From Escherichia coli (lineage in GTDB: Bacteria; Pseudomonadota; Gammaproteobacteria; Enterobacterales; Enterobacteriaceae), in assembly GCF_041248615.1 (NCBI RefSeq), contig NZ_CP158426.1: a DNA stretch of 64,000 bases. The stretch is one strand, 5' to 3'. This document shows, piece after piece, positions 2,728-20,342 of the stretch (its first letter is position 1; each line of letters opens with the position of its first letter). The notes beneath the pieces were generated by a model. It saw nothing but the letters and a program-made list of their open reading frames with translations. It ran no database searches and was not told the origin of the DNA. A program made the translations under genes and the position numbers.

Positions 2728-3262
2728 AGAATTTGATTTGGAATTTCTTAAATCTAGATTTTCTGATGCAGATTTCTATTTTTTTGTTTCTAATGATGAC
2801 TCATCTTATATTTCATGCGTAGCATGCTATTGTGAGAGCGCTAATTACGTGGTTGCGAATTGGACAGCGATTCAGAATTATTTATCTGCTTACTACCAAC
2901 CGAAGGATGAATTAGCTCTTTGGAATATATATTTAGTTTTCTTTTGTTCCGAAAAATTACCGATTTGGGATAAGTACCTTATAGATAATGATAAGTATTC
3001 TGTCAGAAAATTAATTATTGACGGGTTAACTACTCTGCCAAGTATTTCCGAAACTGTAACTTTTCTGAACAATCATCTGCTAGGCGCAGACCTAGAATTA
3101 ACTGAAATAGAGGAGAAGAAGGAGATAGAGTTATCATTAATTGAGTATATAAGTGGAACTCCTTTAGATTCAAAGGTTGAGTCGAGAGATGAGCGTATGA
3201 GCAGAATTGATAAAATTATTAATCTAGTGAGTTCAAATAAAAATGAAAATAAAAAAAGTTGA
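2711..3262 (+). CDS. Hypothetical protein, 183 aa, middle gene of candidate operon
   Basis: ORF overlaps upstream gene by 17 nt and downstream gene by 20 nt (translational coupling); no recognisable motif. Confidence 0.5.
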   Translation: MNLLNKEFDLEFLKSRFSDADFYFFVSNDDSSYISCVACYCESANYVVANWTAIQNYLSAYYQPKDELALWNIYLVFFCSEKLPIWDKYLIDNDKYSVRKLIIDGLTTLPSISETVTFLNNHLLGADLELTEIEEKKEIELSLIEYISGTPLDSKVESRDERMSRIDKIINLVSSNKNENKKS

Positions 3263-6200
3263 AATAGAAGGCTTTCGAGCATACAGATTCAAGGAAGATG
3301 GTACTTTCGATTTTACAAATAAAGATGATACGCCATCCAATTTTGTAGCGATCTATGCACCCAATGGCTTTGGAAAAAGTTCATTCTATGATGCGGTTGA
3401 ATGGGCTATTACTCATAATTTAGATAGATTTGCGGGTGAATATAATAAAAAAAATTATGAGCAAGCTGCCAGGAGCACGAAAGAGGACGGTGTTGCACAA
3501 AAAATACTACGTAATAAAGATGTACCAGACAATATTCCTACTCGTGTAACAGTTTTCACTACTTTACCAACTCCATTCGAACAAAGTTTAGGAACAGTTC
3601 GTTCTGATTCTAGAGATATAAGAATCGGCGAGAATAAAAATAAAATCAATGGCTATTTTAGAAAAGTGGTTCTTAGTCAAGATGAAATAGACCGTTTTTT
3701 AAAAGAAGCAAAGCCGCAAGATCGTTATAAGATGTTTATGGAGAGTTTTGGAGGTGAATGGGAAAAGGCGAGACAAGAGCTAACTATACTATTGAATGAC
3801 AATAAGGCGGTTTTGTTAAATCTCGAAAAAAACAAAAATGAACTTCAGGAACAACTAGATCAGCCTGTTGATGCGTCAACATTCATACAATTTAATAAAA
3901 TAGCATCTGAACTTGTAGCAGAAGGTGAAAGTTTACCATTAGTAGATGAAACAACTATAGTTAATACACAGCATGAGCTTTTGGAAAAAATAATCACAAG
4001 AAGTCACGAAATAAATTTTTCCTTAAACAAGAAAAAAATATTGAGAGATTCGATTTCTGAGTATATTTTAAAATTTCCTGATATCAGTTTTCGTACAACC
4101 CAGATTATCGAGAAAAAGAATAGACTAGAAAAAATAAATAAAGGGATAGAAGATGTCGGTCGTTATAAGACATTTCAGTCTACTCTTGAAAAACTGACTA
4201 TCGAAAAGAAAAAGATAAGTCAGAGCTTAAATTTTATAGAAGAATTAGATGGTTTATCCCAAGAGTTTTTAAGCTTGGAATTTAACTTGGAATCAGCTCG
4301 AAAGAAACATAGAGAGATTTCATATAATTATGAAAATGAAAAAACTCTCCTTGATAATTTATTCCAAACAAGAAACCAAAATGATGCTGATTTATCTTCA
4401 ATTGACAAGCGATGCTTATCTATACGTTCTACGTTAGAAAACGCTACGGTTACTTATTCTAATATATCTAATATACAAAATAAAATTTTAAATATAGTTT
4501 CTACGCAAACAGAATTAGAGCACAAACTTAATCAAGTTAGATCCGAATACCAAAAAAACAAATCCGAATTAAACAAAGTATCAGATTTAACAATAACCGC
4601 CAAATCATTACTTTCATCAGACTTAAGTCTAATTGATTTATCTTCAGATTTATTAAAAGAACTAAACAACTTATCGCAAGAACTAAATATATTGGTCCTA
4701 CATGATCAATCAATTCATAACACACAAGAATCTCTTTCTGCACAAATGGGAGTTCACGAACGTCTAATTGCATCGGGCCTTGAGTACTTAAGTTTATGGC
4801 CGACTAATATATGTCCTTTATGTCACAAGCCGCATGACTCTGAGTCCTCTCTTAGAGAACAAGTAACAAATACTGACGTAATATCCATGCTTAGTAAAGA
4901 GAATGCAGCTAAGCTCGAGATATCCTCAAAACGGCGGTCAGAGTTAAATGGCAAGATAGAATCCATCGTACAGAAAGCCCTTGAAATTAAAATGAGTAAA
5001 CTTGAGGTATTAAGTAAAAAGGTCAATCAACAAGGAAATGAGATACATCGAGAAGAACAGCACTATACAGCTCTTTTAGCAGAAAAACAGTCTGTCCAAA
5101 ATCAGTTAAACGAGTTGCAGAAGGCTGTAGCTGGACTAACTAAAGATGAATTATTAGCTCGCTTAGATGCTGAACTTAAAGAATTAGAGGCCAAGAAAAA
5201 TGAAGTGATAAAAAACAAGCTGACCTTGACGAAAAATATTAACGTTAAAAGAACGTTGATTACAGAGTTAAGTGGGGCGATCAATTTACTTAATACGCAA
5301 ATTCATGAAATGATGTCATCATCTAACTATTTAAAAACAAAAGCTTACTCTGAAGAAAATGGCTTGTCATCGGAGTTTTTGAAAGAACATTATGATGATA
5401 AACGCCATTTTTACCTTAAAAATATAAATGGACTCAATTTTGAGATTAATAATATTACCAGCCAATTAAATGATCTTCAGAAAGCTATGATAGCCGATGA
5501 AATGTGGCTGGATTATGAAGAAATGATTTCTGAAAAAGAGAATTTCGAGGATTATATTTCTAAATCAGAAGCGGTTTTACAATCTTATTCATCATTATTA
5601 AAGCAGCATTTTGAACTACCAAAATATGAATCTTTAGTTGAATTGAAAGATTTCCTGATAAGCTCACTTGATAAAGAAACTAGGCTTTATAATGGTCTAG
5701 AGGAACGGCTTGGAAAATATAATTTATTATCAGAACTTTTGAAAACAGCAGAGTCGTTTGTAAAAAGTATTAAGTTGCAGAATGATATTAATGAAACCTT
5801 AGGTCTTATAGAAATAAGAAAAGAAGTTGATTTAGCTCTGACTAAGGAACGAAATCAAGTAATAGAGGAACTTAGAAACTTGATAAAATCTTTCTTTTAT
5901 GAGGAACTCATTAATTCTATTTATAAGAGAATAGATCCACATCCATCACTTAAGAAAGTGGTGTTTCGCCCAGATTTTGACTCATCAGATAAACCTGGTC
6001 TTAATATAGTTGTCAGTGATGAAAAAGGTGATATGGTATCTCCAATATTATTCTTTAGTGCAGCGCAATTAAATATTCTAAGCCTTAGTGTCTTTTTAGC
6101 AAGTGCTTTGCATGCAAAAGATGATAATGGAAATGTAATTGATGTGATTATGATTGATGATCCAATTCAATCAATGGATTCAATTAATATCCTATCCACA

Positions 6201-6380
6201 ATTGATCTTCTTAGAAGTATTACCGTTAGATTCAACAAACAAATAATAATATCAACACATGACGACAATTTCTTTGGCTTGCTCCAACGTAAAATCCCTT
6301 CGGAAATATTGGGTGCCAAGTTTCTTAAATTGGAGAAATTTGGGGTTGTAGTGCCTGTTGATGATTTAAATAATACATGA
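3243..6380 (+). CDS. SMC/Rad50/RecF-like ABC ATPase with long coiled coil and central CxxC motif
   Basis: N-terminal Walker A YAPNGFGKSSFYDAVEWAI; long K/E/L/Q-rich coiled-coil middle; CPLCHKP near centre; C-terminal signature-like FSAAQLNILSLS, Walker B VIMIDDP, His-switch ISTHD. Confidence 0.8.
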   Translation: MKIKKVEIEGFRAYRFKEDGTFDFTNKDDTPSNFVAIYAPNGFGKSSFYDAVEWAITHNLDRFAGEYNKKNYEQAARSTKEDGVAQKILRNKDVPDNIPTRVTVFTTLPTPFEQSLGTVRSDSRDIRIGENKNKINGYFRKVVLSQDEIDRFLKEAKPQDRYKMFMESFGGEWEKARQELTILLNDNKAVLLNLEKNKNELQEQLDQPVDASTFIQFNKIASELVAEGESLPLVDETTIVNTQHELLEKIITRSHEINFSLNKKKILRDSISEYILKFPDISFRTTQIIEKKNRLEKINKGIEDVGRYKTFQSTLEKLTIEKKKISQSLNFIEELDGLSQEFLSLEFNLESARKKHREISYNYENEKTLLDNLFQTRNQNDADLSSIDKRCLSIRSTLENATVTYSNISNIQNKILNIVSTQTELEHKLNQVRSEYQKNKSELNKVSDLTITAKSLLSSDLSLIDLSSDLLKELNNLSQELNILVLHDQSIHNTQESLSAQMGVHERLIASGLEYLSLWPTNICPLCHKPHDSESSLREQVTNTDVISMLSKENAAKLEISSKRRSELNGKIESIVQKALEIKMSKLEVLSKKVNQQGNEIHREEQHYTALLAEKQSVQNQLNELQKAVAGLTKDELLARLDAELKELEAKKNEVIKNKLTLTKNINVKRTLITELSGAINLLNTQIHEMMSSSNYLKTKAYSEENGLSSEFLKEHYDDKRHFYLKNINGLNFEINNITSQLNDLQKAMIADEMWLDYEEMISEKENFEDYISKSEAVLQSYSSLLKQHFELPKYESLVELKDFLISSLDKETRLYNGLEERLGKYNLLSELLKTAESFVKSIKLQNDINETLGLIEIRKEVDLALTKERNQVIEELRNLIKSFFYEELINSIYKRIDPHPSLKKVVFRPDFDSSDKPGLNIVVSDEKGDMVSPILFFSAAQLNILSLSVFLASALHAKDDNGNVIDVIMIDDPIQSMDSINILSTIDLLRSITVRFNKQIIISTHDDNFFGLLQRKIPSEILGAKFLKLEKFGVVVPVDDLNNT

Positions 6381-7696: not shown

Positions 7697-8416
7697 TCAG
7701 AAGTAGGTTGTCCAGAAAGAGGAAACTGGCATCGCCAGTACCAATGCAGGAAGCATACTGGCTACCGGGAAGACCTTGATACCGGAAATACGCAGGCCGG
7801 TCGCCACCATTAGAACGCCACCCACAGCTGAAAAGTCGGCCTGCATGGCAGGCGTGGTCAGGGGCAATATATATATCGCGCTGTAGGCGAGTGCTAACTG
7901 AATGATAAGCTGGGGGAAAGCGACTAATGCCACGGCGTAACCCAGGGTTGTGGCAAAAATGAGGGCGGTCAGCAAATCCAGGAACGCTTTCGCGATAAGG
8001 ATACTCGAGTCCCCGGTCATGCCTTCGTGCATCGCACCAAAAATACCGGTGCCACTGGCACAAAAAAGGACGATGATCGCCACATAGTTTTGTAAAAACT
8101 GCGCCTGTGAGTCTTTGTCTCCGGGATCGCTTTTCACGACGAGCTCCACCAACCCACGGGCTTGTCCGCCCAGGTGGCTTATCCCTTTTTCCAGATAGCA
8201 GAGCTCGCCCACCAGTGTGCCGAGAAGGACCGATAGAACCATGACGGGCATATGGCTGACACTTGTCACAAGGACGATCCCCATACACAGGGAGGCAGCA
8301 CCAAAAATGAGCGGCATTGAGGTACGTAACCTTTCAGGTAGACGTGAGCTAATGATGGCTCCTGCCATCCCGCCGATCACGACGGCAGAGCCGTTGAACC
8401 ATGGGCCTGTAATCAT
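7697..8416 (-). CDS. DUF554 family inner-membrane protein (YqgA-like)
   Basis: Hydrophobic 239-aa ORF; recalled similarity to E. coli YqgA including NYVAIIVLFCASGTGIFG and ILPLTTP; overlaps UbiX-like stop by 4 nt. Confidence 0.7.
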   Translation of the reverse strand: MITGPWFNGSAVVIGGMAGAIISSRLPERLRTSMPLIFGAASLCMGIVLVTSVSHMPVMVLSVLLGTLVGELCYLEKGISHLGGQARGLVELVVKSDPGDKDSQAQFLQNYVAIIVLFCASGTGIFGAMHEGMTGDSSILIAKAFLDLLTALIFATTLGYAVALVAFPQLIIQLALAYSAIYILPLTTPAMQADFSAVGGVLMVATGLRISGIKVFPVASMLPALVLAMPVSSFWTTYF

Positions 8417-9027
8417 AGCGATTTACTCCTGTTATTCAGGTTGGGAGTTTCACCCCAGCGCGGCAATGTGTCGCAATCAAGGTCGAGTAAACTCAGCGCC
8501 CGCGCAACACTATGAGCGAAGATGTTCTCAGTACTTGCAGGGCGTGCATACCAGGCAGGTACGGGTGGAAAAATGATGCCGCCGGTTTCGGTAACCTGAA
8601 GCATGTTACGAAGGTGCCCGGTATGCAGCGGCGTTTCCCGTACCATCAGAACCAGCCTCCGGCGCTCTTTCAGGGTCACATCGGCTGCCCGCACCAGCAA
8701 ACTGTTGGTTAAGCCCGCCGCAACAGCGGCGAGGGTGTTCATAGAGCAGGGGACAATCAACATCCCGGATGCCCTGAACGAACCGCTGGCGATGTCGGCT
8801 GCAATATCATCAAAGGGATAAATTACATCAGCCAGCTTATGAACGTCGTCTTCTGACAAAGTGGTTTCCAGACTGCGGGTCAGATGAGCGGCAGGAGAAA
8901 TCACAACGTGACTTTCCACGTTAAGTTGTCGCAGATAACGCAGGGCCTGCACTCCATATAAAAAACCGGATGCACCACTGATCCCAATGATGACGCGCTT
9001 GCGAGGAGAACATTCAGATGTCGACAT
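8413..9027 (-). CDS. UbiX/Pad1-family flavin prenyltransferase
   Basis: N-terminal VIIGISGASGFLYG motif typical of UbiX; 204 aa; directly downstream of UbiD-like gene. Confidence 0.85.
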   Translation of the reverse strand: MSTSECSPRKRVIIGISGASGFLYGVQALRYLRQLNVESHVVISPAAHLTRSLETTLSEDDVHKLADVIYPFDDIAADIASGSFRASGMLIVPCSMNTLAAVAAGLTNSLLVRAADVTLKERRRLVLMVRETPLHTGHLRNMLQVTETGGIIFPPVPAWYARPASTENIFAHSVARALSLLDLDCDTLPRWGETPNLNNRSKSL

Positions 9028-9037
9028 TATGGCGTCC

Positions 9038-10522
9038 TCAGTACTTGAAGTTATCCGGGAGGAAACGACTGATCTCGACCTCCATGAATTCGCTGCGGCG
9101 AAACTGGCCTTTCATCGTGAACGGAACGGTACAGTCGAAAATAGTTTTACAGGCGATCCCGTGGTCGCGGACGGAGTAACTAAAAGCCGGGTCAGAGGAC
9201 GGATCGAGGGGATGGCACCTTACGCCGGGTATGAACACCGTGCTGATATCCCCCTGATAGCGTGTCGTCATTGCCCATATCACGTCATTGAGATCGAAAA
9301 TATCCACATCGTCATCAACCAGAATCACATGCTTGAGTTCCGAGAATGCGGAGAAGGCCAGAAGAGCCGCCTGGCGCTGACGACCTTCATCGTTTGGCAG
9401 ACGTTTTTTCACCTGCAATACGGCAAGATATTTTCCGGTCCCGGGTGACGGGCAGTGAACATTTTGCACAAAGCCGGGAAGGGCGCGCTCCACCAGTTGC
9501 AGAATACTGGCCTCGGTGGGGATCCCTGCCATATTGGTATGCTCGTCACTTGGACCAATGCAGGTCTGTAGAATTGGGTGACGGCGGTGGGTGATGGCTT
9601 TCACTTTTATCACTGGCACCATTTGCTGTGCCTGTCCGGTATAGCCGGGGAATTCCGGCATGGCTTTACCACTGTTGGTATTTTGATCCTCCCTGACCCG
9701 ATAGTTAGGAATGAGTTCCCCCTCGATAACGACTTCGGCGTTCGCAATGGCCCGGGCATTCACGGTCAGACACTGGCACAGCTCAACAGGCTGTTTACGC
9801 AAGCTCCCTGCCACTGACAGTTCGTCAAAACCAAGTGGAGTTGTGGGCGGTTCGAAGCAGGCACCGATTTCAATGGCTGGGTCAACACCAATGCTGATCG
9901 AGATGGGAAGTGGGGCCCCATCTTCCTCTGCTTTCTGACGGAACAAATCCAGATGCCGACCGGGAACGAAGTACATGGATATTTCATCCCTGTTTTGCAC
10001 GCACAGTCGGTGAATAGTGATGTCATGCTCGCCGGTATGTGGATCGGCGGCGTAGCACATACCGAGAGTGAAGTAAGGACCGGCATCCTCCGGCGTATTC
10101 GTGGGTGCTGGCAGGATATTGAGGATACTGAAATCCGGATCGGATGCCAGATGGACTACTTCCTGACAGACGGCATTTTCCTGCGGAATAACGACAGGAC
10201 TTATCGGGGTGCTTACCGCGTCTTTCAGTAAAAAGGCCAGCTTATCGGGTGTGGTATCCAGTAGCCGGGCCACGCGTTTTCGCGAGGCGAGAAGACCTAT
10301 CAGCACTCGCATATCGGTATAGCCTTTAATCCGGTTAAAGAGCATGGCTGGACCGATACGAGTCGGACGCATGACCGTACCGTGTGCCCCAATGTAGCGG
10401 TACACCCCTGACAGTTCTGCACTTGGATCAACGGGTTCATCGGTTTCGATAAGCTCATCATCAAACTTGCGCAGTACGGCCAGCGCACTGCGTAGGTCAG
10501 TCACTTTTTGTGTTTGAGACAT
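9038..10522 (-). CDS. UbiD-family (prFMN-dependent) decarboxylase
   Basis: 494-aa ORF with UbiD-like size and sequence character; paired with UbiX-like gene as in non-oxidative aromatic acid decarboxylase operons. Confidence 0.8.
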   Translation of the reverse strand: MSQTQKVTDLRSALAVLRKFDDELIETDEPVDPSAELSGVYRYIGAHGTVMRPTRIGPAMLFNRIKGYTDMRVLIGLLASRKRVARLLDTTPDKLAFLLKDAVSTPISPVVIPQENAVCQEVVHLASDPDFSILNILPAPTNTPEDAGPYFTLGMCYAADPHTGEHDITIHRLCVQNRDEISMYFVPGRHLDLFRQKAEEDGAPLPISISIGVDPAIEIGACFEPPTTPLGFDELSVAGSLRKQPVELCQCLTVNARAIANAEVVIEGELIPNYRVREDQNTNSGKAMPEFPGYTGQAQQMVPVIKVKAITHRRHPILQTCIGPSDEHTNMAGIPTEASILQLVERALPGFVQNVHCPSPGTGKYLAVLQVKKRLPNDEGRQRQAALLAFSAFSELKHVILVDDDVDIFDLNDVIWAMTTRYQGDISTVFIPGVRCHPLDPSSDPAFSYSVRDHGIACKTIFDCTVPFTMKGQFRRSEFMEVEISRFLPDNFKY

Positions 10523-10651
10523 TACGTTTTCCTCAGTAAGTCGCCGGGAGACAGCATGCCCGGTGTGCTTTTATCTTCATCCTGCAGGCAATCACAGGAC
10601 GAGCCGTTACATCACTGACAGTATGTGAGGCAACATAAATCCCCGTCTAAT

Positions 10652-10675
10652 CACATTAACGACGTTTTTAATGTG
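10652..10675. promoter_or_regulatory. Interrupted palindrome CACATTAA-N8-TTAATGTG, candidate LysR-type regulator binding site
   Basis: Located in divergent intergenic region between the UbiD-like operon and the LysR gene; dyad of the kind used by LTTRs. Confidence 0.4.
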
Positions 10676-10710
10676 GGATTGTTATCGAAAAATAGTGATT
10701 GGAGGAACGT

Positions 10711-11592
10711 GTGGACTATCGGTATTTGCATGCATTTGTGGTGCTTGCCAGAGAACTGCATTTTGGAAAAGCCGCACTGCGGCTCAACATCACGCAGCCA
10801 GCCTTAAGCCGTCAGATTAGAGTGCTGGAAGATCAGCTTGGCATGGTGCTATTTACGCGTGATCGTCGTCATGTGGCGCTGACTGTGGAAGGAACTCAGC
10901 TTGCAGCGGAGGCGCGGAGCGCCGTCAGTCATTACGAAAAAATGCTGAGCCGTGCGAGTAGCCTTCGAAAAGGCTATAAAGGACAACTCATACTGGGTTA
11001 TGTCGGATCTTCCATTCTTGATCCCGCCCTGACACGGTTAATCACCTGTTTTCGCGAGACTAAACCGGATGTTGAGATTGTTATTGAGGAGCACAACGTT
11101 GACGAACAGCTCACCCTCCTGCTCGACCATCAACTGGATATGGGGCTGCTCCGATCGCCTGTTCCGCATTTTGCCAACCTGGACTACGTGGATATCGCCA
11201 CCAGGTCACTCATCGCCGCAGTACCGCACACGCATCCGCAGGCAGGAGTCGGTAAAATAGAGCTGGAGACGTTGTCCGGGGATACATTTATGATCCAGAA
11301 AGATCCGCCCGGGGTCGGGCTAGGCTGGTCTGCATTACATGCCTGTGAGATGGCCAGTTTTGTCCCACCCAAAATCTATTTTACTCGCGATGTTGCGGTG
11401 GCTATTGGCATGGTGTCGATGGGAATAGGAGTTACGCTGGTGCCAGAAACCCAGCGTTCTGTAACGTTGCCTAATGTCTGCTACTGCCTGCTGCACGATC
11501 CCGAGGTCACAACGACCTTAACGCTTTGCTGGCCGAAATTCAGGAAAAGCAGGGAATTGATAGAGTTTGTACGCTCTTTAACGCTTGGTTGA
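10711..11592 (+). CDS. LysR-family transcriptional regulator
   Basis: N-terminal HTH LHFGKAALRLNITQPALSRQIRVLEDQLG; GTG at 10711 with GGAGG 5 nt upstream (ORF track starts at TTG 10699); divergent from decarboxylase operon. Confidence 0.85.
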   Translation: MDYRYLHAFVVLARELHFGKAALRLNITQPALSRQIRVLEDQLGMVLFTRDRRHVALTVEGTQLAAEARSAVSHYEKMLSRASSLRKGYKGQLILGYVGSSILDPALTRLITCFRETKPDVEIVIEEHNVDEQLTLLLDHQLDMGLLRSPVPHFANLDYVDIATRSLIAAVPHTHPQAGVGKIELETLSGDTFMIQKDPPGVGLGWSALHACEMASFVPPKIYFTRDVAVAIGMVSMGIGVTLVPETQRSVTLPNVCYCLLHDPEVTTTLTLCWPKFRKSRELIEFVRSLTLG

Positions 11593-12133
11593 ATCTTAAG
11601 AAGCTGCAGTTGAGTCATAGCCAGCGATCAAAATTGAGAAGACAAAACCGGGGAGAGGTGCCCGCAGTTTCTGCCCCAGCTCCCATCTTCAGGAAGATGT
11701 GTTTCAGGAATGCATTCGTGATGCTGGGGATAGCGGCAAGACGATTTTCTCATCGGGTAACTCTGCGGTATCGGAACAGTTGACGACGGCAGGGTGGTGA
11801 ATGGGAACCTCAGGATGAAGCGCTCGGGCAAGAGGGATGGACTGTGCTGAAGAGAACACTGACAGAACGAGCATGATGCTTGCAAAAAGGGGACTCTGGA
11901 TATTCATTGTTTATCTCCTGATGATATTCATCGCTCCAGAGAATACGCTTGCCACTCTTTTTATTTGTTTTCCTGAATTAAAAATGCCCGGTTTTATGTG
12001 GTTCTTCCGTAAACGTTATTACATTAATTAACATCTAGTTTCTATCTCCGAAATGAGGTAAAAAAATAATTGTCGTGGTTTTTATCAAACAAATTTACCG
12101 GCAGCTCAGATCCGAACTAATACCTGGAAATTC

Positions 12134-12182
12134 AAACCCCAAACCCCAAACCCCAAACCCCAAACACCAAACCCCAAACACC
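12134..12182. repeat. Tandem heptanucleotide repeat (AAACCCC/AAACACC) x7
   Basis: Read directly: four AAACCCC, then AAACACC, AAACCCC, AAACACC; complementary strand is (GGGGTTT)n. Confidence 0.9.
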
Positions 12183-12412
12183 ATTTCACCGCTGGCGTGT
12201 AAGGGGCTCTATATCTGTTTATTCAGGGATAGTTTTTTCTCCCGTGTGATTTCCGTTCATGTATCTGCTTCCGGTTAATCGTTTCCCAGCACAACCCGTC
12301 CCGCAAGGGTAAATGGCACGCCTGCTGCGCCCTTGCGGGATGGAACGATGCCGGGAAAGCGAACCGTCAGGCGATACGAAGACGAAAATCACACCACTGA
12401 CGGAGAAAAAAA

Positions 12413-13357
12413 ATGACTATGTCCCTGCATACCAAGATAAGTGCCCCTAACACGACAGCGGCGACCAGCGTATCCTCGCTGGATCTGTCAGGCTCCTCAA
12501 AAACGAAATGTTCAACAGCCAGAACCGATATTTATCAGACTGTTACCGACAGCATAATTGCGGCGCTGGAAACCGGAGTAAAACCTTGGGTGTGTCCTTG
12601 GCAGCGAGCTCCCGGTATGTCCGGTTTACCGTCCAATTACGCCACTGGTAAGGCTTACAGCGGAATGAATATCATGTTGCTTTGGTGCAGCGCGTCAAAA
12701 CAGGGATTCTGTGATTCACGCTGGATGACCTACAAACAGGCAAAAGCGGTAGGTGGGCAGGTGCGCAAGGGAGAACACGGCACTACCGCGATTTTCTATA
12801 CCACGCTGGAAAAGGAAAATGATAACGGAGAAACTGACTATATTCCTATGCTGAAAGCATTCACTGTGTTTAATGTTGAACAAATTGACGGTTTACTCCT
12901 GAGTGATGATGCCGTTTTTCCGGCAGAGATCTTTGAGCCATTACCACGTGCAGAAGCACTTTTTCGTAGTAGCGGTGCAACCATTATTGAAAAAGGACAG
13001 AATGCTTTTTTTACACCATCAACCGACGAAATTCGCTTACCTGAACGGTATCTTTTTATTGATGCTGCTAATTTCTACGCAACCGGCCTGCATGAGCTCG
13101 TTCACTGGAGTGGGGCAAAAAGTCGGCTGAACCGTGAAATGAAAGGGAAATTTGGCAGCGAGGGGTATGCGTTTGAAGAGTTGATCGCTGAGCTGGGGAG
13201 CGCATTCCTGATGGCGGATCTGGGGATAGTTGGAGAAGTTCTGCATGACAGTTATATCGCTTCCTGGCTTAAAGCACTGAGGAATGATAAACGCTATATT
13301 TTCAAGGCCGCCAGCGCGGCATCGAAAGCACATCGCTATTTGATGGATAAAAGCTGA
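12413..13357 (+). CDS. ardC: ArdC-like antirestriction protein (ssDNA-binding N-domain plus zincin-like metallopeptidase C-domain)
   Basis: DIYQTVTDSIIAALETGVKPW N-terminal ArdC-type motif; HExxH motif GLHELVHWSG in C-terminal half; hairpin after stop. Confidence 0.75.
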   Translation: MTMSLHTKISAPNTTAATSVSSLDLSGSSKTKCSTARTDIYQTVTDSIIAALETGVKPWVCPWQRAPGMSGLPSNYATGKAYSGMNIMLLWCSASKQGFCDSRWMTYKQAKAVGGQVRKGEHGTTAIFYTTLEKENDNGETDYIPMLKAFTVFNVEQIDGLLLSDDAVFPAEIFEPLPRAEALFRSSGATIIEKGQNAFFTPSTDEIRLPERYLFIDAANFYATGLHELVHWSGAKSRLNREMKGKFGSEGYAFEELIAELGSAFLMADLGIVGEVLHDSYIASWLKALRNDKRYIFKAASAASKAHRYLMDKS

Positions 13358-13651
13358 GTAGCAAAAAGCCGCAAAGGAATGCGGCTTAATGGGCTGGGGG
13401 TACTAAACCAGTAAAGGTTTAGTCAGTAATATTAGTGAAGCAGAGCAAGTATCGAACAGTCATATTCCTGTAGTGGTATTAAGACAACCTTAAGAAGGGA
13501 CTGATGTATAGCTACTCTTGTATACCCATCCATGGAAAATTCGGTTGTATTGCCGGGTTGATATGTGCAGGTTGGTCCCGACCCAAGAAGTTTTTACTGT
13601 GAAAATTGTCAAACTATATCAATGTGGTAACAGCTTCTCTTGTCCCTTTGG

Positions 13652-14002
13652 TTATTTCAAATTGGACCGGGCTATCTGTTGCAACACGGTTGCTCTGCTT
13701 GAAACAGAGTTAACATATGCAACATCAGATACTTTGAGTTTGATCAGATCATAGCCTCGTAGCTTACTGTCCAAGGTCATATTGAACAGAGTTAAATCGC
13801 GCATTTTACCTTCCATTTCAAGCCTGATTCGGATCCCCCCTGATATGAGATATCTGAAGTGGTCTTTTTGGTCAGTGATACTTACAATACGGTCTTTGTC
13901 CCACGGTGACGTGTTCATACTCAAAGCTCCTGTAATGTTGGAGATTTGAGCATGGTTATCCCTCATGAGCGAGGAACGGACAATGTCCCTTGCGCGATCC
14001 AA
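13652..14002 (-). CDS. Hypothetical protein, possible recombinase-like remnant
   Basis: 116-aa ORF; weak resemblance (LRGYDLIKLKVSDV) to tyrosine recombinase core motif; no clear start context. Confidence 0.25.
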   Translation of the reverse strand: MDRARDIVRSSLMRDNHAQISNITGALSMNTSPWDKDRIVSITDQKDHFRYLISGGIRIRLEMEGKMRDLTLFNMTLDSKLRGYDLIKLKVSDVAYVNSVSSRATVLQQIARSNLK

Positions 14003-14200
14003 GATTGATTTTTCTTATTAAATTAAGCTATGGCTGACCTACGAACGATAGGCAAAATGCTCCTAAAGCTACGGCTTATGACAGTAAAAAACATATTGAT
14101 AAAAATCTGAGCTGGTTTAGAATGCTATAATGGAATAATTATTTATTTTCGGCCTTCAGTTTGATCATTTTTAGAAATCACCCTTTTGAAGGAATCTACA

Positions 14201-14995
14201 ATGGAATCAGAAGAAACGAAAGAAGAGAGTTATCAACAGCGTTCGGAGTTTATCAGAAAAATAATTCAACAGCCTGTTGAGGGTGTCATATCTTCATGCA
14301 CTATACCAAAAAAAATAATTCAATTTTGGGATTCATCCAATACTATCCCTAATGATGTCAGACATTGCATGAAATCATGGCGTATCTTAGAACCTTTTGG
14401 GTATGAGTATTTACTATATGATTTCGTTAGCGCCCAAGAATTTATTAAACATAATTTGGGTGAAACATACAGTGAAGCTTTTGCCAAGTGTACTCATCCT
14501 GCTATGCAATCAGATTATTTCCGATTATGTTATATCTCGGTAAACGGGGGATTTTATGTTGACACTGATGATGTTTATCTGGGTAGTGAGATAAGTAGTT
14601 TTTTCACGGATGATAAGTTAAAAATACAACCTTTATGCTACGATATTTCCACCGATTCTATGATTCCACCAGAAATTTTTACAAAGGAAAATACTTATGA
14701 AGAATCTTGGATTTTTTATTTCAACAACAACCCGTTAATTGCTCCGCCTCATCATGTTATCATTGATAAGGCACTAGAGCAATCCACATACTTACTTAAT
14801 AAATCAAGCTATCCTCTCACAGATATTCAGTCAACAACTGGTCCTGGTAATCTATCTAAATCTATTTTCTCGTGTCGCGAGGAAATAGATTTATTATCCC
14901 AGATTACGGTAGTATCAAACTGGCAAGATATTGCAGAAACTAAGTGGGATTTAGAATACAGAGCTGATTCTAGAAATTGGCGCTTGATGAATTAA
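14201..14995 (+). CDS. Glycosyltransferase with DXD motif (Gly_transf_sug-like)
   Basis: IIQFWDSSN...CMKSW and GGFYVDTDDVY motifs; ATG 14201 with GAAGGA upstream (track start is TTG 14186); AT-rich. Confidence 0.65.
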   Translation: MESEETKEESYQQRSEFIRKIIQQPVEGVISSCTIPKKIIQFWDSSNTIPNDVRHCMKSWRILEPFGYEYLLYDFVSAQEFIKHNLGETYSEAFAKCTHPAMQSDYFRLCYISVNGGFYVDTDDVYLGSEISSFFTDDKLKIQPLCYDISTDSMIPPEIFTKENTYEESWIFYFNNNPLIAPPHHVIIDKALEQSTYLLNKSSYPLTDIQSTTGPGNLSKSIFSCREEIDLLSQITVVSNWQDIAETKWDLEYRADSRNWRLMN

Positions 14996-15010
14996 CATGG
15001 ATTTTTAATA

Positions 15011-17212
15011 ATGAACATTAAAAATAATTTGAAAGGTATTAGCCGTTTTTTTTATTCTTTTTACTTACGCTCTCGGTTACTTCTCCCAGCGCAAAAATCA
15101 TCGACCTTTAATACATTAAATCAGAATGAAGGCGTTATTAGCAGGATTTACGCTATAAACTTAGAACGGGAAGCGATTAGATGGGCAGATTTAAATAAAG
15201 AACTGGGTAAAATACTAGATAAATCTAATAAAAAATTAACGAGCCAATTAACCAGATTCTCTGCTATAAACGCCAAAGAAATGTCAGACATTCTCAATGA
15301 GGAAGAGGTTATTCCTTATTATACTTTAGCAGACCAGTTGTACGTTGACCCTCAACCAAAAATCTTACCCGATAAATTTGATCTCGATGTCCCTATAAAA
15401 ATGAGTAAAGCGGAAATTGCTGTAGCATTATCGCATCTAAATGTTATTAGGCTTGTTGCAGAAGGTTCTGATGCATATGCTTTAGTGCTTGAGGATGACG
15501 TGTATTTTGAAAGAGATTTTGCCAAAACCTTAGATGCTGCTTGGTCTGAAATGATTCAAGCTGACAGATCTTCACCTGGTTTTGATATCTTATATTTGTC
15601 ATTTAAAGAGGTTATGAATGGCGCGAAAAAGAAAATTATTTCGAAAAGCATATTTAAACCAGAGCGAGGGTTATGGTATTTTTCAGGATATGTATTATCT
15701 AAGAAAGGAGCAAATAAAATCCTCTCACTCCTCCCAACTTATGGACCAATTGACTTATGGATAAATCATCAATTTGAGAAACTCGATGTGAGGGCAGTAT
15801 ATAAGTCGATCATTTCTCAGAGGTTGGATTTTAACTCTTCAAATTCCTATTCAATATTACCTACCTTAGTGAAGATTGGTATTATTGACAATGAAAAAGC
15901 TTCCAGTTTTAATGAACTTCCAAATTATTGGCCTGTTTTTGCATTTGGTGTAAGTGGTTCGGGTATTTCTTCTTTGGGTATGGCACTATCAATGCTTGGC
16001 TATAAGTGTTGTAGTGATATTGATAGACTTCCCAATGCAGACTTAAAAAATCTATTAAGTAATTCAGAGCAGAATGAATTCAATGCTTATGTAAATGTTG
16101 GCTGTCTCAGTAAGTATATCGGCATATTAAAAAAACAATATCCAAAAGCAAAATTTATAATTACCACGAGTGAATCAAAAGAAATCGAAGATGTTATTTT
16201 TAATATAATTGAGGAGATCGTTGATACTGACTATGTTGTATTGCATTCAGATGAAAAAAACAAATGGAAGGTTATATGTGAATACCTTCAATGCCCACCA
16301 CCTATTTCAGCGTACCCAGAAATGGCTGACATTATTCCTAGGCAGATTATAGATATCACCAGTGCAGCACAAATCAATAATTCAGAAATTAACATGATAC
16401 ATGACATTTCCCCTTGGATATTAGAAAGAAAGAATTTTTCAGGAAATGGTTTTTTTATAAAAGATAATCCGAAGAGAATTGAAAAAGAGCTTGCTGATTT
16501 CTTCATTAATGATTCACTACAAAATATTAATAATAACTATTGGGAAATTCGCGATGATACTTTCCCTGGAAATCTTGGACTGTTTCGACCTCAAAATGTG
16601 ATTCAAAATGATATTAGTGGTTTAGGTCTTGTAGTTAAGGAGGAACAGTTAGGCGTTAGAGAGTTTAGTGCTGCTGCGATTTCAAGTAGAATGAAGTTCC
16701 TATATGGCCGATTTGAAGTGTCCCTACGAGCGGCAAATGTTGCAGGGATAGTAACCGGCTTCTTTTTACATAGAGATTCGCCTCGTCAAGAAATCGATAT
16801 TGAGTTTGTTGGAAATCGATCTGATCATATGTTGATCAATGTTTTTTATAATCCTGGTGATGAAGGTGCAAAGTTTGATTATGGATATCGTGGTACACCA
16901 ACTCTTATTCCTTTAGGTTTTGATGCTTCTGAAGAGTTTCATGATTACATGATTGAATGGAGTCCTGATGAGATAAAATGGTTTGTGGATGGAGTTATGG
17001 TTTATCGTAGAGGAGTTTGGGGGCCTACACCTATACCTCATTTACCCATGACCCTTCATGCTAACACTTGGCCAACCCGTTCCAAGGAACTGGCGGGACG
17101 TCTCCACACGCGTTCCTTACCCTGTATCACTTATATTAGGAAAATATGTATTGATGCAACAATGGATGTTAATAATCCAAAATTAAATGACCAGACAGTA
17201 GTGGCTGGTTAA
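15011..17212 (+). CDS. Multidomain protein: GT25-like glycosyltransferase N-domain, central region, GH16-like C-terminal domain
   Basis: N-terminal RIYAINLEREAIRW and LVLEDDVYFE resemble family 25 glycosyltransferases; C-terminal EIDIEF matches the GH16 ExDxxE catalytic motif; 733 aa; AT-rich. Confidence 0.65.
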   Translation: MNIKNNLKGISRFFYSFYLRSRLLLPAQKSSTFNTLNQNEGVISRIYAINLEREAIRWADLNKELGKILDKSNKKLTSQLTRFSAINAKEMSDILNEEEVIPYYTLADQLYVDPQPKILPDKFDLDVPIKMSKAEIAVALSHLNVIRLVAEGSDAYALVLEDDVYFERDFAKTLDAAWSEMIQADRSSPGFDILYLSFKEVMNGAKKKIISKSIFKPERGLWYFSGYVLSKKGANKILSLLPTYGPIDLWINHQFEKLDVRAVYKSIISQRLDFNSSNSYSILPTLVKIGIIDNEKASSFNELPNYWPVFAFGVSGSGISSLGMALSMLGYKCCSDIDRLPNADLKNLLSNSEQNEFNAYVNVGCLSKYIGILKKQYPKAKFIITTSESKEIEDVIFNIIEEIVDTDYVVLHSDEKNKWKVICEYLQCPPPISAYPEMADIIPRQIIDITSAAQINNSEINMIHDISPWILERKNFSGNGFFIKDNPKRIEKELADFFINDSLQNINNNYWEIRDDTFPGNLGLFRPQNVIQNDISGLGLVVKEEQLGVREFSAAAISSRMKFLYGRFEVSLRAANVAGIVTGFFLHRDSPRQEIDIEFVGNRSDHMLINVFYNPGDEGAKFDYGYRGTPTLIPLGFDASEEFHDYMIEWSPDEIKWFVDGVMVYRRGVWGPTPIPHLPMTLHANTWPTRSKELAGRLHTRSLPCITYIRKICIDATMDVNNPKLNDQTVVAG

Positions 17213-17490
17213 TCATTAGAGTGAAAAGTAAATATTAGTAAGGCACTGGTAAAAATGTAGACACTATCAGTGCCTTAGTAGTTATCCCTCTGGATGGTTT
17301 TTTGACAATAATTTCCGTTTCTGGCACGGAACGGACAGAAAGCAGGGCCACCAAATCTCTCACGAGCCAAAAACCTAAATTATGATCTGACAGATACATG
17401 TATCAATGAAACTGTCGCTGTCAGATCAATTACGCCTTACTATCTGAAAATTATTTGATTTTCTGCATCGTGCATTCAAATTAACAATGT

Positions 17491-18342
17491 TCAGGAGGCA
17501 TAAACTGAAAGGAGTTCTTTAGCTGCCAATTGACCAAGTGCGTTGGCTGCAAAAGGACTGTCACCTGTCAGTACCTTACGATCTTTGTATACGCTTCCTT
17601 TAATATCATCATTAACAATATTCATCCCCATTTGCTTAAGTGCATCGCCAAAATACCATGTGAGATGGCCCGGCATATAACCAATGTCAGGCGTCTGCTT
17701 ATCAGCTGAATCAGGGAAAGCGCAAATAGAATACTCTTTTAGAGGGTTTTCACCATTGCGCAGCGAAAGGAATGCTGCTGGGCCATGGCAAAGGGATATG
17801 ACGAAGCGGTCATTGTCCATGAACCAGCGAAGAGTATCGGCTACTGCGCTGCTTTCTGGCAGCCCAATCAGTGCGCCGTGGCCACCAGGAATAAACACGG
17901 CAGCATATTCACTTTGCTTGTTCAGGCTATTCAATACATCAGACAATTTTTCAGGATTTTGGAACTTGTCTCTATACCGGCTGAAAAATGGCATAACTTT
18001 CTCATCCTTGTGCGGCATGGCCCAGTATTCGAACTTTGTCATGTAACCTGAGATTGTCGCAATGTCAAAATCAAAACCAGCAGCATGCAGGTGATACATT
18101 GGAATAAGCGTTTCAACAGGATGGTTTCCCGTTGAGAACAGAGCCCCGCTATCAGTCATCAGGTAACGCTCATCCGCAGCGATGACCAGCACCTTCTTCC
18201 CTCCCATGCACTGTTTGGGATAGTCGTAGTCACTAAGGTCAGATACGGGGCTGGTAAACTGACTAAGGGAATAGTCAGAGGGGAAAAATGCGTTTTCTTC
18301 AGCATGATCCACTTTCGGATGTTTACTTTTATCATTTGTCAT
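17491..18342 (-). CDS. hchA: Hsp31 / glyoxalase III (DJ-1/PfpI family), divergent HchA homologue
   Basis: 283-aa product from MTNDKSKHPKVDHAEENAFFPSDYSLSQ; strong but not identical similarity to recalled E. coli HchA (KFEYWAMPHKDEKVMPFF, FVISLCHGPAAFL, TGDSPFAANALG); track ORF 17491..18504 extends upstream into the IS2 flank. Confidence 0.85.
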   Translation of the reverse strand: MTNDKSKHPKVDHAEENAFFPSDYSLSQFTSPVSDLSDYDYPKQCMGGKKVLVIAADERYLMTDSGALFSTGNHPVETLIPMYHLHAAGFDFDIATISGYMTKFEYWAMPHKDEKVMPFFSRYRDKFQNPEKLSDVLNSLNKQSEYAAVFIPGGHGALIGLPESSAVADTLRWFMDNDRFVISLCHGPAAFLSLRNGENPLKEYSICAFPDSADKQTPDIGYMPGHLTWYFGDALKQMGMNIVNDDIKGSVYKDRKVLTGDSPFAANALGQLAAKELLSVYAS

Positions 18343-18514
18343 TACGTATTCCTCGTTGATTGGTGTTAACTCTCTTTCTCGGGCCTGAATTCGCCTGTTA
18401 TATGGGCGACCAGGATAGCCTGATAGACTGGCCCCATGAATCTCCAGACAACCAATATCACTTAAATAAGTGATAGTCTTAATACTAGTTTTTAGACTAG
18501 TCATTGGAGAGCAG

Positions 18515-18880
18515 ATGATTGATGTCTTAGGACCGGAGAAACGCAGACGGCGTACTACACAGGAAAAGATCGCTATTGTTCAGCAGAGTTTTGAACCGGG
18601 AATGAAGGTCTCCCTTGTTGCCCGGCAACACGGTGTGGCAGCCAGCCAGTTATTTCTCTGGCGCAAGCAATACCAGGAGGGAAGTCTTACTGCTGTGGCC
18701 GCAGGAGAGCAGGTCGTTCCTGCCTCTGAACTTGCTGCTGCCATGAAGCAGATTAAAGAACTCCAGCGCCTGCTCGGCAAAAAAACGATGGAAAATGAAC
18801 TCCTTAAAGAAGCCGTTGAATACGGGCGTGCAAAAAAGTGGATAGCGCACGCGCCCTTATTGCCCGGGGATGGGGAGTAA
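18515..18880 (+). CDS. insC: IS2 transposase OrfA (InsC)
   Basis: [29 protein letters not shown]... matches recalled IS2 InsC; ATG at 18515 inside track ORF 18470..18880. Confidence 0.9.
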
Positions 18881-19743
18881 GCTTAGTCAGCCGTTGTCTC
18901 CGGGTGTCGCGTGCGCAGTTGCACGTAATTCTCAGACGAACCGATGACTGGAAAGATGGTCGCCGCAGCCGTCACTCAGATGATACGGATGTGCTTCTCC
19001 GTATACACCATGTTATCGGAGAGCTGCCCACGTATGGTTATCGTCGGGTATGGGCGCTGCTTCGCAGACAGGCCGAACTTGATGGTACGCCTGCGATCAA
19101 TGCCAAACGTGTTTACCGGATCATGCGCCAGAATGCGCTGTTGCTTGAGCGAAAAACCGCTGTACCGCCATCGAAACGGGCACATACTGGCAAAGTGGCC
19201 GTGAAAGAAAGCAATCAACGATGGTGCTCTGACGGGTTCGAGTTCCGCTGTGATAACGGAGAAAAACTGCGAGTCACGTTCGCGCTGGACTGCTGTGACC
19301 GTGAGGCACTGCACTGGGCAGTCACTACGGGCGGCTTCGACAGTGAAACAGTACAGGACGTCATGCTGGGAGCGGTGGAACGCCGCTTCGGCAACGAGCT
19401 TCCGGCGTCTCCAGTAGAGTGGCTGACGGATAATGGTTCATGCTACCGGGCTAATGAAACACGGCAGTTTGCCCGGATATTGGGGCTTGAACCGAAGAAC
19501 ACGGCGGTGCGGAGTCCGGAGAGTAACGGCATAGCAGAGAGCTTCGTGAAAACGATAAAGCGTGACTACATCAGTATCATGCCTAAACCAGACGGGTTAA
19601 CGGCAGCAAAGAACCTTGCAGAGGCGTTCGAGCATTATAACGAATGGCATCCGCATAGTGCACTGGGTTATCGCTCGCCACGGGAATATCTGCGGCAGCA
19701 GGCCAGTAATGGGTTAAGTGATAACAGGTGTCTGGAAATATAG
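18838..19743 (+). CDS. insD: IS2 transposase OrfB (InsD), DDE integrase domain
   Basis: Overlaps insC 3' end in a different frame as expected for IS3-family frameshifting; sequence matches recalled IS2 OrfB. Confidence 0.9.
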
Positions 19744-20342
19744 GGGCAAATCCACCTGAGTAGTGGTAGTCTCTTCCATACGGTTGCGTACGTATCTCAG
19801 GTGGTTTGCTACAGCATGCGGAGATAGTCCCAGTAAACCAAGAACCACTTTAGCTTTTGATGACTCATACCCCCAATCTGAACACTCCTTTAATACCCAT
19901 ATTGCCGAATACAGGAATCATAATGTCGTGCAAAATACCACTAACAAAATTATGACAATTTAATAACTTTGAACGTGGCTTTGTGTTCCAGTTTTATGCC
20001 AGGAGAAATCATTCGATATCTTTATAAAATATCGTTCTAACTGTAAGTAATTAATATGATTTTTCTCATAAAAAAACTTAAAATCAGTTAACTTCAGCCC
20101 GGAATATGCGTTCACTGAGCGGCCTCTTCATGAACGAAACCGAGAAAAAATAGGCTACAGTCACAACCACACTGTAGAGCAACTTCTCTCACGTGCTGTT
20201 TCAGAGAATAGATCTTCTTGCATCTGAAGAATGGTATCCAGAGCTATCCTGATCACCCCTGAATGCAATAGTTGCGTATACTAGGCGCATGACAGAATCA
20301 TAAAATGAGAGCTATCCCTTATTATCATGACTTCAGTAAAAT

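Follow-up and report, generated by a model that had tools for sequence, protein, structure and literature searches.

The ardC gene in the window (64,000 nucleotides of the chromosome of E. coli NRZ14408) very probably belongs, as a conserved gene, to the transfer module of a 51.7-kb ICE of the ICEKp1/ICEEc1/pMET1 kind inserted at asnT. This module is composed of a VirB T4SS, oriT, mobB, mobC and ardC. By its predicted product, the open reading frame is a genuine and intact ArdC-type antirestriction gene.

ArdC and its place in the ICE

RefSeq annotates an "ArdC family protein" (WP_192459694.1) at coordinates identical to those of the open reading frame. The following parts of the gene were distinguished:

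12413–13357, plus strand: ardC coding sequence (314 aa, ATG start), defined by RefSeq, Pfam, the PDB match and homolog alignment
12413–12526, plus strand: N-terminal leader (aa 1–38)
12527–12871, plus strand: ArdcN ssDNA-binding domain (aa 39–153; Pfam PF08401, DUF1738)
12947–13315, plus strand: zincin-like MPTase-PolyVal domain (aa 179–301; PF18818)
13091–13105, plus strand: HExxH motif, here HELVH (aa 227–231)
13178–13180, plus strand: third metal ligand, E256, assigned by homology to R388 ArdC and conservation

The N-terminal ArdC-type motif and the C-terminal HExxH motif reported in the first-pass annotation were borne out by the two Pfam domains, ArdcN (E 3.3e-41; 140.8 bits against a cut-off of 22.6; profile positions 2–123 of 123 covered) and MPTase-PolyVal (E 3.9e-47; 159.9 bits against a cut-off of 27.5), and by the HELVH sequence. 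The crystallised ArdC of R388 (PDB 6I89/6SNA) matches the predicted protein collinearly (aa 36–311 against 5–285; E 6e-67), with 44.7% identity over 273 positions. The metal ligands of R388 ArdC, H201, H205 and E229 (PMC7213743), align with H227, H231 and E256, and these residues, together with the catalytic E228, are invariant among 70 distinct homologous coding sequences. Such agreement is far beyond chance. An NCBIfam search of the protein gave no match. The homology search that had been proposed as a check therefore confirmed ArdC by domain content, collinear similarity to a solved structure and metal ligands, which speaks against a protein unrelated to ArdC. The leader of 38 residues, absent from R388 ArdC, had been missed in the first reading.

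The ICE and its transfer module comprise the following features:

1–49871, unstranded: portion of the ICE within the window, continuing about 1.9 kb farther left, delimited by direct repeats and the empty site
20343–21095, minus strand: MobC (MOBC relaxase family; RefSeq annotation)
21107–23002, minus strand: MobB/T4CP (RefSeq annotation; PMC2262945)
23003–23709, unstranded: candidate oriT upstream of mobB, recognized by similarity and an inverted repeat (PMC2262945, PMC4891358)
23710–36040, minus strand: VirB-type (MPF_T) T4SS (VirB1, B2, B3-4, B5, EexN, B6, B8, B9, B10, B11, Cag12-like, TrbM/KikA)
48423–49694, minus strand: intact tyrosine integrase (Arm-DNA-bind_3, Phage_int_M and Phage_integrase), adjoining tRNA-Asn
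49856–49931, minus strand: tRNA-Asn (asnT), with the proximal copy of a 22-bp repeat at 49850–49871
2081780–2081801 of the record, about 1.87–1.89 kb left of window base 1: distal copy of the 22-bp repeat, just past yeeJ

The insertion is bracketed by a 22-bp perfect direct repeat of the tRNA-Asn 3' end, whose copies lie 51,741 bp apart and include the 17-bp core typical of asn-tDNA ICEs, and the intact integrase (422 aa) is located 161 bp from tRNA-Asn. In 2665 E. coli genomes the predicted empty site was matched in a single piece, at identities reaching 100%. No tRNA-Asn att repeat (with up to 2 mismatches) occurs between the two terminal repeats, including the stretch from ardC to the T4SS. 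The ICE carries one IS3 insertion and a second, frameshifted IS3 near its distal end. Within the candidate oriT there is a perfect 19-nt inverted repeat (23271–23289 / 23345–23363), and the region shares 86–87% identity with its equivalent in pCRY and other ICE variants. A Pfam search of the MobC protein gave no match, and its identity is that of the RefSeq annotation.

The T4SS proteins VirB3-4, VirB11 and VirB9 are 85, 88 and 77% identical to those of pCRY; for MobC the identity to the pCRY equivalent is only 49%, and for MobB 53%. Since pCRY carries the same transfer module without ardC, this gene is not indispensable for transfer. Where ardC is present, its divergence tracks that of MobB/MobC: the identities of ArdC, MobC and T4CP are 95, 96 and 96% in comparison with strain A38, 81, 77 and 77% with ACN002, 79, 85 and 79% with K71-77, and 71, 64 and 65% with a plasmid. 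The contiguous order ardC-mobC-T4CP was detected in 165 E. coli genomes, and ArdC and MobC are convergent in all 31 loci examined from other species, with a median of 708 bp between their 3' ends. A larger figure of 1009 genomes refers to matches to any part of 11600–14100 and is not an ArdC count. The assignment of the left part of the window to the same ICE as the T4SS, made in the first-pass annotation, is thus supported by the outer repeats, the empty site, synteny and co-divergence, and no internal att copy marks a boundary between ardC and the T4SS.

The hairpin and leader module upstream of ardC

The conserved ardC block begins upstream of the gene, and three non-overlapping features were identified there:

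12133–12183, plus strand: tandem heptamer repeat (CAAACCC x7.3), located at the left margin of the conserved ardC block
12184–12232, plus strand: conserved non-coding DNA that separates the hairpin from the heptamer repeat
12233–12412, plus strand: long, imperfect, conserved hairpin of about 180 nt, directly upstream of ardC, defined by folding z and covariation

Conservation with the ICE relatives begins at 12170–12184. The hairpin is non-coding, with stops in the ardC frame, and its base, TTTTTTCTCC (from 12233), pairs with the Shine-Dalgarno region GGAGAAAAAA right before the ATG. Its folding z is −5.8 as ssDNA and −6.9 as RNA, and the median across 100 hairpin copies is −5.5. In the covariation analysis, in which the window's own fold was projected on the copies and an alignment-free test was applied, 84% of cells were paired against 36–46% when the fold was slid, and 41 pairs had double changes (0/500 shuffles). 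When 98 copies were aligned with MAFFT, the alignment was rich in gaps, and RNAalifold detected no more than 11 pairs in it. The Rfam search yielded a sub-threshold chance match only (mir-1179, E 0.46).

Matches to the hairpin occur in 795 places in 446 plasmids. The plasmids carry two copies each, one before ardC and one before a 143-aa ORF, and in Vibrio scophthalmi two copies lie 1.5 kb apart. In MOBC plasmids the hairpin is repeated before successive genes, all of which are transcribed toward oriT-mobB-mobC. It is accompanied by a leader of about 33 codons in the 5' end of ardC, with nucleotide-level constraint on codons 11–35; about 100 nt of the module lie within the coding region. Elsewhere this module is fused to four unrelated proteins: RadC-JAB, DUF3560/LPD25, a 143-aa and a 196-aa protein. 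Copies of hairpin-ardC also include pseudogenes and copies without an adjacent T4SS, and ArdC alone is therefore no proof of conjugative DNA.

The hairpin and the nucleotide-constrained leader probably govern the expression of ardC. A scan for consensus promoters and terminators upstream of ardC returned nothing useful, and no promoter-like pair with at least 9/12 matches was found on either strand within 12184–12412 (by eye, only 3/6 + 3/6). If ardC has a conventional promoter, it probably lies in the stretch 12184–12232, which has no consensus sigma-70 match. Downstream of the gene, a 6-bp GC-rich stem-loop at 13368–13385, right after the ardC stop, was not flagged by the terminator scan, and we do not call it a terminator.

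Two readings of the hairpin were considered. That it is an mRNA 5'-leader, transcribed from a promoter near 12184–12232, and occludes the ribosome-binding site or stabilises the transcript, thereby tuning ardC translation, is a reasonable possibility, short of a probable one. The pairing of the Shine-Dalgarno sequence with the hairpin base agrees with this reading, as do the start of conservation about 50 nt upstream of the hairpin and a precedent in p576, where a 75-bp inverted-repeat 5'UTR raises ardC expression about 2-fold (PMC6294495). Less easily reconciled with it are the absence of a recognisable sigma-70 promoter upstream and the better folding of the antisense strand, and an mRNA leader alone leaves the nucleotide-level constraint on codons 11–35 unexplained.

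According to the second reading, which seems rather unlikely, the hairpin would form on the transferred strand and serve there as a promoter or priming signal of the single-strand (Frpo/ssi-like) type, allowing transcription of ardC from ssDNA immediately upon entry. A long imperfect hairpin kept by covariation, and repeated before genes that face oriT-mobB-mobC as the leading genes of F face oriT, would suit such a role; but it has no sequence similarity to F Frpo, and neither hairpin strand contains a −35/−10-like hexamer pair at the scan threshold. The tests of the folding strand pull in opposite ways. The antisense (template) strand folds more stably than the sense strand in 97–98 of 100 copies, in line with a single-strand promoter, whereas the sense strand has five majority G.U pairs and no majority A.C pair. 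This pattern favours an RNA or sense-strand fold; the conserved G.U pairs fit an mRNA leader and count against the ssDNA promoter.

We tentatively propose, as a claim that may well fail, that a portable "establishment-gene cassette head" is made up of the hairpin, the ribosome-binding site and the ~33 initial codons of ardC. This head would be specific to ICEs and plasmids of the MOBC type (CloDF13-like) in Enterobacterales and Vibrionales, conserved in its nucleotides even at synonymous sites, joined to at least five unrelated protein bodies (ArdC and the four named above), and unrelated in sequence to Frpo or the IncN CUP. The hairpin-plus-leader module may be undescribed. If functional, the cassette head could be the MOBC counterpart of the ssDNA-promoter and CUP systems, enabling early, co-ordinated expression in the recipient and offering a homology handle for the swapping of counter-defence genes. 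The module suggests how MOBC elements might co-ordinate the expression and exchange of establishment genes, a question left aside in published surveys because the polarity of MOBC transfer is unclear.

Predicted function of ArdC and the cargo around its gene

The ArdC protein of R388 acts in the recipient against HsdRMS, and its protease activity is dispensable for antirestriction (PMC7213743). By homology to this protein, ArdC of the window would be made in the recipient upon arrival of the ICE there as ssDNA, and it would relieve type I (HsdRMS-type) restriction there, probably via ssDNA binding and with no strict need for protease activity. Transcription of ardC runs toward oriT, like that of the leading genes of F, and the gene may enter the recipient either early or nearly last. 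According to Samuel et al., MOBC elements show no leading-region enrichment in anti-defence genes (PMC11541004).

Going by residue conservation, the invariant protease site implies a second, putatively proteolytic role of ArdC. That such a role is the main one, with an IrrE/ImmA-like zincin cleaving a repressor or a host defence/SOS factor in the recipient or donor, and with ssDNA as the activating signal, we regard as unlikely. In its favour, the HExxH + Glu helix is invariant in the 70 homologs although antirestriction does not need the R388 protease; R388 ArdC is similar to IrrE, and an SOS response was set off in recipients by its conjugation (PMC7213743); moreover, the same upstream module drives RadC-JAB and the DUF3560/LPD25 "polyvalent-protein" domains. 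However, relief of type I restriction is the sole phenotype shown experimentally for the family (PMC7213743), there is no known substrate, and no feature of the window points to a cognate repressor.

In the window ardC is separated from mobC by about 7 kb of cargo, with the convergent orientation of the two genes kept. The separation arises because the gap between their convergent ends is a cargo hotspot, which contains the following:

13393–20342, unstranded: the hotspot as a whole, with variable cargo, from the 3' end of ardC to the convergent 3' end of mobC
13517–13918, minus strand: integrase pseudogene (remnant; RefSeq annotation)
14201–14995: GT32
15011–17212: GT25/GH16 fusion
17491–18342, minus strand: hchA paralog
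about 18424–19754: IS3

Among the relatives, either ardC abuts mobC directly, as in ACN002, with a gap of about 200 bp, or other cargo, such as Hachiman, intervenes. Depending on the strain, this gap and the DNA upstream of ardC hold Hachiman, CBASS, retron, ABC-3C/Lamassu, restriction enzymes or metabolic genes. Relative to strain A38, the IS3 of the gap is a simple insertion. Both this IS3 and the integrase pseudogene are insertions at the level of cargo, and the hotspot that received them is variable. The leftmost 20 kb of the ICE are a mosaic of cargo rather than conserved ICE backbone. Because both flanks of the gene are cargo hotspots, the conserved ardC block is a landmark for mining defence cargo.

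It is highly improbable that the island is composite, with ardC and everything to its left forming a second, older, degenerate element that was added by tandem accretion at tRNA-Asn and starts at the integrase pseudogene: this remnant does lie right after ardC, in the orientation of the functional integrase and exactly at the similarity breakpoint with strain A38 (13518), GC content falls sharply at 13–17 kb and asn tDNAs are documented sites of tandem accretion (PMC4891358), but the remnant's 116-aa ORF matches no integrase family in Pfam and is unlike the P4-type int, ArdC co-diverges with MobB/MobC, and tandem accretion was rejected on the grounds of the missing internal att copy (none with up to 2 mismatches), the direct junction of ardC with mobC in ACN002, the comparison with A38 and the intact empty site.

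Comparison with known systems

The upstream module recalls two arrangements from leading regions. With Frpo/ssi of F and ColIb-P9 (Masai and Arai, 1997; Samuel et al., 2024, PMC11541004) it shares a long imperfect hairpin right before establishment/anti-defence genes, repeated per element, with the genes facing oriT. It differs in the length of the hairpin (about 180 nt vs 328 nt for Frpo), in its reach of about 100 nt into the coding sequence and in the lack of a recognisable −35/−10 in the stem; a profile HMM of 98 hairpin copies gave no match at E≤10 to positions 50–68 kb of F. The published survey of leading regions left out MOBC elements (PMC11541004). The CUP (conserved upstream) repeats in the leading region of IncN pKM101/R46 (Delver and Belogurov, 1997; PMC6289460; PMC3490853) are likewise a conserved sequence repeated before several antirestriction/establishment genes of one element, and they too are a substrate for recombination and cargo turnover. 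They are described, however, as ArdK-binding promoter elements, and not as a 180-nt hairpin with a shared N-terminal leader. The comparison of the hairpin with R46 yielded one 21-nt chance match in blastn and none in nhmmer, and no ardK/ardR regulator is annotated within the window. The hairpin has no sequence similarity to F Frpo or the R46 CUP, and its homology to them was rejected.

The ArdC of IncW R388/pSa (Belogurov, 2000; Gonzalez-Montes, 2020, PMC7213743), also borne by a conjugative element, has the same architecture of ArdcN and HExxH gluzincin, with the same metal ligands and catalytic Glu. Compared with it, the window ArdC has the additional S/T/A-rich leader of 38 aa and the 180-nt upstream hairpin, and it belongs to a MOBC/MPF_T ICE instead of a MOBF plasmid.

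Also among the closest known systems are pMET1, p29930, ICEKp1 and HPI-ECOR31 (ICEEc1), whose transfer module is already known to contain ardC (PMC2262945; PMC4891358). For this reason the finding itself is ordinary, being documented for the pMET1/ICEKp1/ICEEc1 element family; what it confirms is a single ICE across the left 50 kb of the window, with ardC as a normal backbone gene. The likeness to this family extends to the order VirB1-11, oriT, mobB, mobC and then ardC on the opposite strand, to integration at asn tRNA and to the conserved 17-bp core repeat. The window element differs in the cargo of about 7 kb between ardC and mobC, and it has neither the endonuclease/PLD gene after mobC nor the yersiniabactin locus. 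No ybt genes are annotated between int and the T4SS, where porins, an HTH regulator, an ABC iron transporter, an MFS transporter and AmiA are present; the cargo carried instead of yersiniabactin comprises porins, an iron ABC transporter, UbiD/UbiX and a Lamassu system. The element therefore shares the transfer backbone of this family, but is not an HPI-ICE/ICEKp in the strict sense.

ArdC and the layout of the element

As the first-pass annotation had proposed, the window carries an ArdC-type gene, encoding a 314-aa protein (ATG start; 12413-13357, + strand) that RefSeq labels 'ArdC family protein' at identical coordinates. The protein contains two Pfam domains: ArdcN (aa 39-153; E 3.3e-41) and a zincin-like MPTase-PolyVal domain (aa 179-301; E 3.9e-47), and matches no NCBIfam model. 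Among solved structures only the R388 ArdC entries 6I89 and 6SNA match it (aa 36-311; E about 6e-67), with 44.7% identity to the R388 protein over 273 positions. The reported HExxH metalloprotease motif is present as HELVH: the metal ligands of R388 ArdC (H201, H205 and E229; PMC7213743) align with H227, H231 and E256, within HELVH and FEELIAE, and these residues, together with the catalytic E228, show no variation in the 70 distinct homologous genes collected. Over its whole length the window matches positions 2083672-2147671 of the E. coli NRZ14408 chromosome (NZ_LT599825.1) at 100% identity. The gene lies in the following setting, listed from right to left:

Right of tRNA-Asn: mtfA, tRNA-Ser, lambdoid prophage
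49856-49931, - strand: tRNA-Asn
48423-49694: intact tyrosine integrase (by its domains), adjoining tRNA-Asn
Left of the integrase: cargo of porins, iron ABC transporter, MFS transporter and AmiA
Between this cargo and the T4SS: regulators AlpA, DUF2857 and TraR
36040 down to 23710: complete VirB-type T4SS
23003-23709: 700-bp intergenic region between the T4SS and mobB
23002-21107, right-to-left: coupling protein MobB/T4CP
21095-20343, right-to-left: MobC
ardC-mobC gap, in leftward order: IS3, hchA paralog, GT25/GH16 fusion, GT32, integrase pseudogene (13918-13517)
12413-13357, + strand: ardC
Left of ardC: LysR, UbiD, UbiX, DUF554
390-6380: four-gene Lamassu system (LmuA, LmuA, LmuC, LmuB; PADLOC, E down to 1e-269)

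The Lamassu-type (ABC-3C) system of the distal ICE cargo has one MBL-fold and one trypsin/CTD4 LmuA, and the block recurs with 90% identity, in other contexts, in other E. coli genomes (H36-H40). The cargo at 7697-11592 (UbiD-family decarboxylase, UbiX prenyltransferase, DUF554 and a divergent LysR regulator) is shared with strain A38, which carries an ICE variant. Between virB11 and virB10 lies an insert (25863-27067) made up of an opposite-strand 335-aa ORF, without Pfam or PADLOC matches, and a small ORF; A38 shares this insert, whereas the two genes overlap directly in ACN002, another strain with an ICE variant, and in pCRY. The lambdoid (Rac/Qin-like) prophage at tRNA-Ser beside the ICE (50923-64000) carries a frameshifted integrase, an exonuclease gene, dicB, ydfABC and hokD.

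One element or two

Since an integrase pseudogene and an IS3 lie between ardC and the T4SS, a boundary there was a real possibility. A single second copy of the tRNA-Asn 3' end lies just past the yeeJ pseudogene, ~1.9 kb beyond the left end of the window. The two copies of this perfect 22-bp direct repeat are 51,741 bp apart, and no further copies were found between them at up to two mismatches. The predicted empty site (outer flanks joined) is matched without interruption by 2665 complete E. coli genomes, with identities reaching 100.0%, so the segment was inserted precisely. In ACN002 mobC and the gene of an ArdC homolog converge with 193 bp between them, and the same T4CP and VirB genes come next. 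A contiguous ardC-mobC-T4CP block occurs in 165 complete genomes, and in other Enterobacterales and Vibrionales ardC and mobC are convergent in 31/31 loci holding both (median of 708 bp between 3' ends). Identities to four relatives (A38, ACN002, K71-77 and one plasmid) are 95, 81, 79 and 71% for ArdC, 96, 77, 85 and 64% for MobC, and 96, 77, 79 and 65% for T4CP; judged from these values, ArdC divergence follows that of MobC and T4CP.

The conserved ardC block stops at 13392-13518 and the mobC block restarts at 20370-20375 in pairwise comparison with the relatives. The gap between the convergent ends (13393-20342) is a cargo hotspot, which holds Hachiman in K71-77, helicase/nuclease genes, LysE and hchA in A38, and no cargo in ACN002 (193 bp). 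Compared with A38, the IS3 (about 18424-19754) represents a simple insertion. Tandem accretion, described together with a conserved 17-bp repeat for K. pneumoniae asn-tDNA islands (PMC4891358), would assign ardC to a second element; it is rejected because five tests (repeats, empty site, synteny, gap variants and co-divergence) show no boundary between ardC and the T4SS. The earlier proposal that the left part of the window belongs to the same ICE as the T4SS is thus borne out, and ardC is a backbone gene with variable cargo on either side.

Within the gap, a low-GC (34%) glyco-enzyme cassette begins exactly at the integrase remnant, and 17491-18342 is a second glyoxalase III gene (hchA) within the ICE, 95.5% conserved with A38, where hchA adjoins mobC. 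An IS3 pseudogene lies just within the distal ICE end (42160-43312 of locus L003). Further upstream of the window, a second island of about 10.5 kb is located at the tRNA-Asn asnW (L003 16870-27498; 2056869-2067497 in NZ_LT599825.1); its ends are the same 17-bp repeat, and it carries a frameshifted integrase and an RHS element.

The hairpin-plus-leader module

Similarity to the relatives begins about 230-240 nt before the ardC ATG, right after a CAAACCC repeat, and this upstream stretch is conserved although non-coding. The repeat (tandem heptamer x7.3, 12133-12183) directly borders the conserved ardC block on its left side; it may be a scar left by recombination or a contingency repeat. The 180-nt region 12233-12412 folds as one long imperfect hairpin (z -5.8 as template-strand ssDNA and -6.9 as RNA), at the base of which the Shine-Dalgarno sequence is paired. 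In 89% of 100 non-redundant copies z is below -3, and the fold is one hairpin about 176 nt long. The projected structure pairs 84% of cells, versus 36-46% with partners slid, and double-sided changes affect 41 pairs (308 cells), versus 19-27 pairs (76-109 cells) in the slid controls; the observed pairing and covariation values were not reached in any of 500 shuffles.

The window holds a single copy. Searched alone, the hairpin hits 795 sites across 446 plasmids, many of which carry two; MOBC/MPF_T plasmids have it in front of ardC and also of an adjacent 143-aa ORF, the two genes being directed toward mobC. The invariant 3'-arm motif was found in 92 stretches from Enterobacterales and Vibrionales in a scan of species-representative genomes. 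In 108 genome-scan copies (L016-L107), at least 17 ardC genes are truncated or frameshifted and 9 copies have no ORF. The hairpin-ardC module often persists as a chromosomal remnant, and ardC alone is therefore no proof of an active conjugative element.

Non-ArdC ORFs behind the hairpin open with the same leader of ~30 residues as ArdC, fused to (i) a RadC-JAB domain, (ii) DUF3560 and LPD25, or (iii) two other bodies (143-aa and 196-aa proteins without Pfam matches). Copies also lie at L008 (4524-4725 and 5969-6170), at L091 (two) and at L074. Hairpin, RBS and ~33-codon leader are one module (12233-12526 in the window), fused to ArdC and four unrelated bodies in MOBC-type plasmids and ICEs. 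Third-codon-position identity among ArdC genes is 0.80 in codons 1-33 (0.8-0.9 at codons 11-30) versus 0.53 in both domains, so the leader is constrained or homogenised as nucleic acid; on folding it shows no strong structure of its own.

Two mechanisms can be offered, because G.U pairs and stability favour opposite strands and no -35/-10 pair is recognisable in the module: the sense strand has five majority G.U pairs and no majority A.C pairs, whereas the antisense strand folds more stably in 97-98 of 100 copies. An mRNA leader acting on translation or transcript stability, for which p576 ardC provides a precedent (PMC6294495), is somewhat more likely. A single-strand promoter or priming signal resembling Frpo is less likely; the module has no similarity to Frpo or CUP, nor does it detectably resemble the F leading region or IncN R46. 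It matches no Rfam family, and no description of it was found in the searchable literature.

Proposed function and comparison with known transfer modules

By homology to R388 ArdC, the protein would bind ssDNA via its N-terminal domain and, when made in the recipient, relieve the incoming element of type I (HsdRMS) restriction. Protease activity of R388 ArdC is dispensable for this relief (PMC7213743); the complete invariance of the protease site points to a further, proteolytic function. The gene reads toward oriT, in the same sense as F leading-region genes. In MOBC systems, however, oriT is flanked by the T4SS operon on one side and the relaxase gene on the other, and ardC may enter the recipient either early or nearly last; Samuel et al. 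left MOBC elements out of their survey as lacking a leading-region signal (PMC11541004).

The intergenic region 23003-23709 is a candidate oriT, since it shares 86-87% identity with the sequence preceding mobB in pCRY and the other ICE variants and includes a perfect inverted repeat whose 19-nt arms are 55 nt apart (23271-23363). Further direct and inverted repeats occur at 23006-23083 and 23553-23633. The VirB/oriT/mobB/mobC/ardC arrangement has already been published (PMC2262945; PMC4891358): the oriT-mobB-mobC structure is common to HPI-ECOR31 (ICEEc1), ICEKp1, pCRY and CloDF13, with two nic sites proposed within an inverted repeat (PMC2262945), and the ICEKp1 oriT adjoins virB, mobB and ardC (PMC4891358). 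Unlike ICEKp/ICEEc1 proper, the window element has no yersiniabactin locus; pCRY, in turn, lacks ardC, and its MobB and MobC are rather divergent from those of the window element (53 and 49% identity, respectively). The ardC gene of the window, already annotated by RefSeq, is ordinary: it adds a new member to a known protein family, and the ICE transfer module that contains it is likewise of a known type. The hairpin-plus-leader module is the only element here with some novelty potential.
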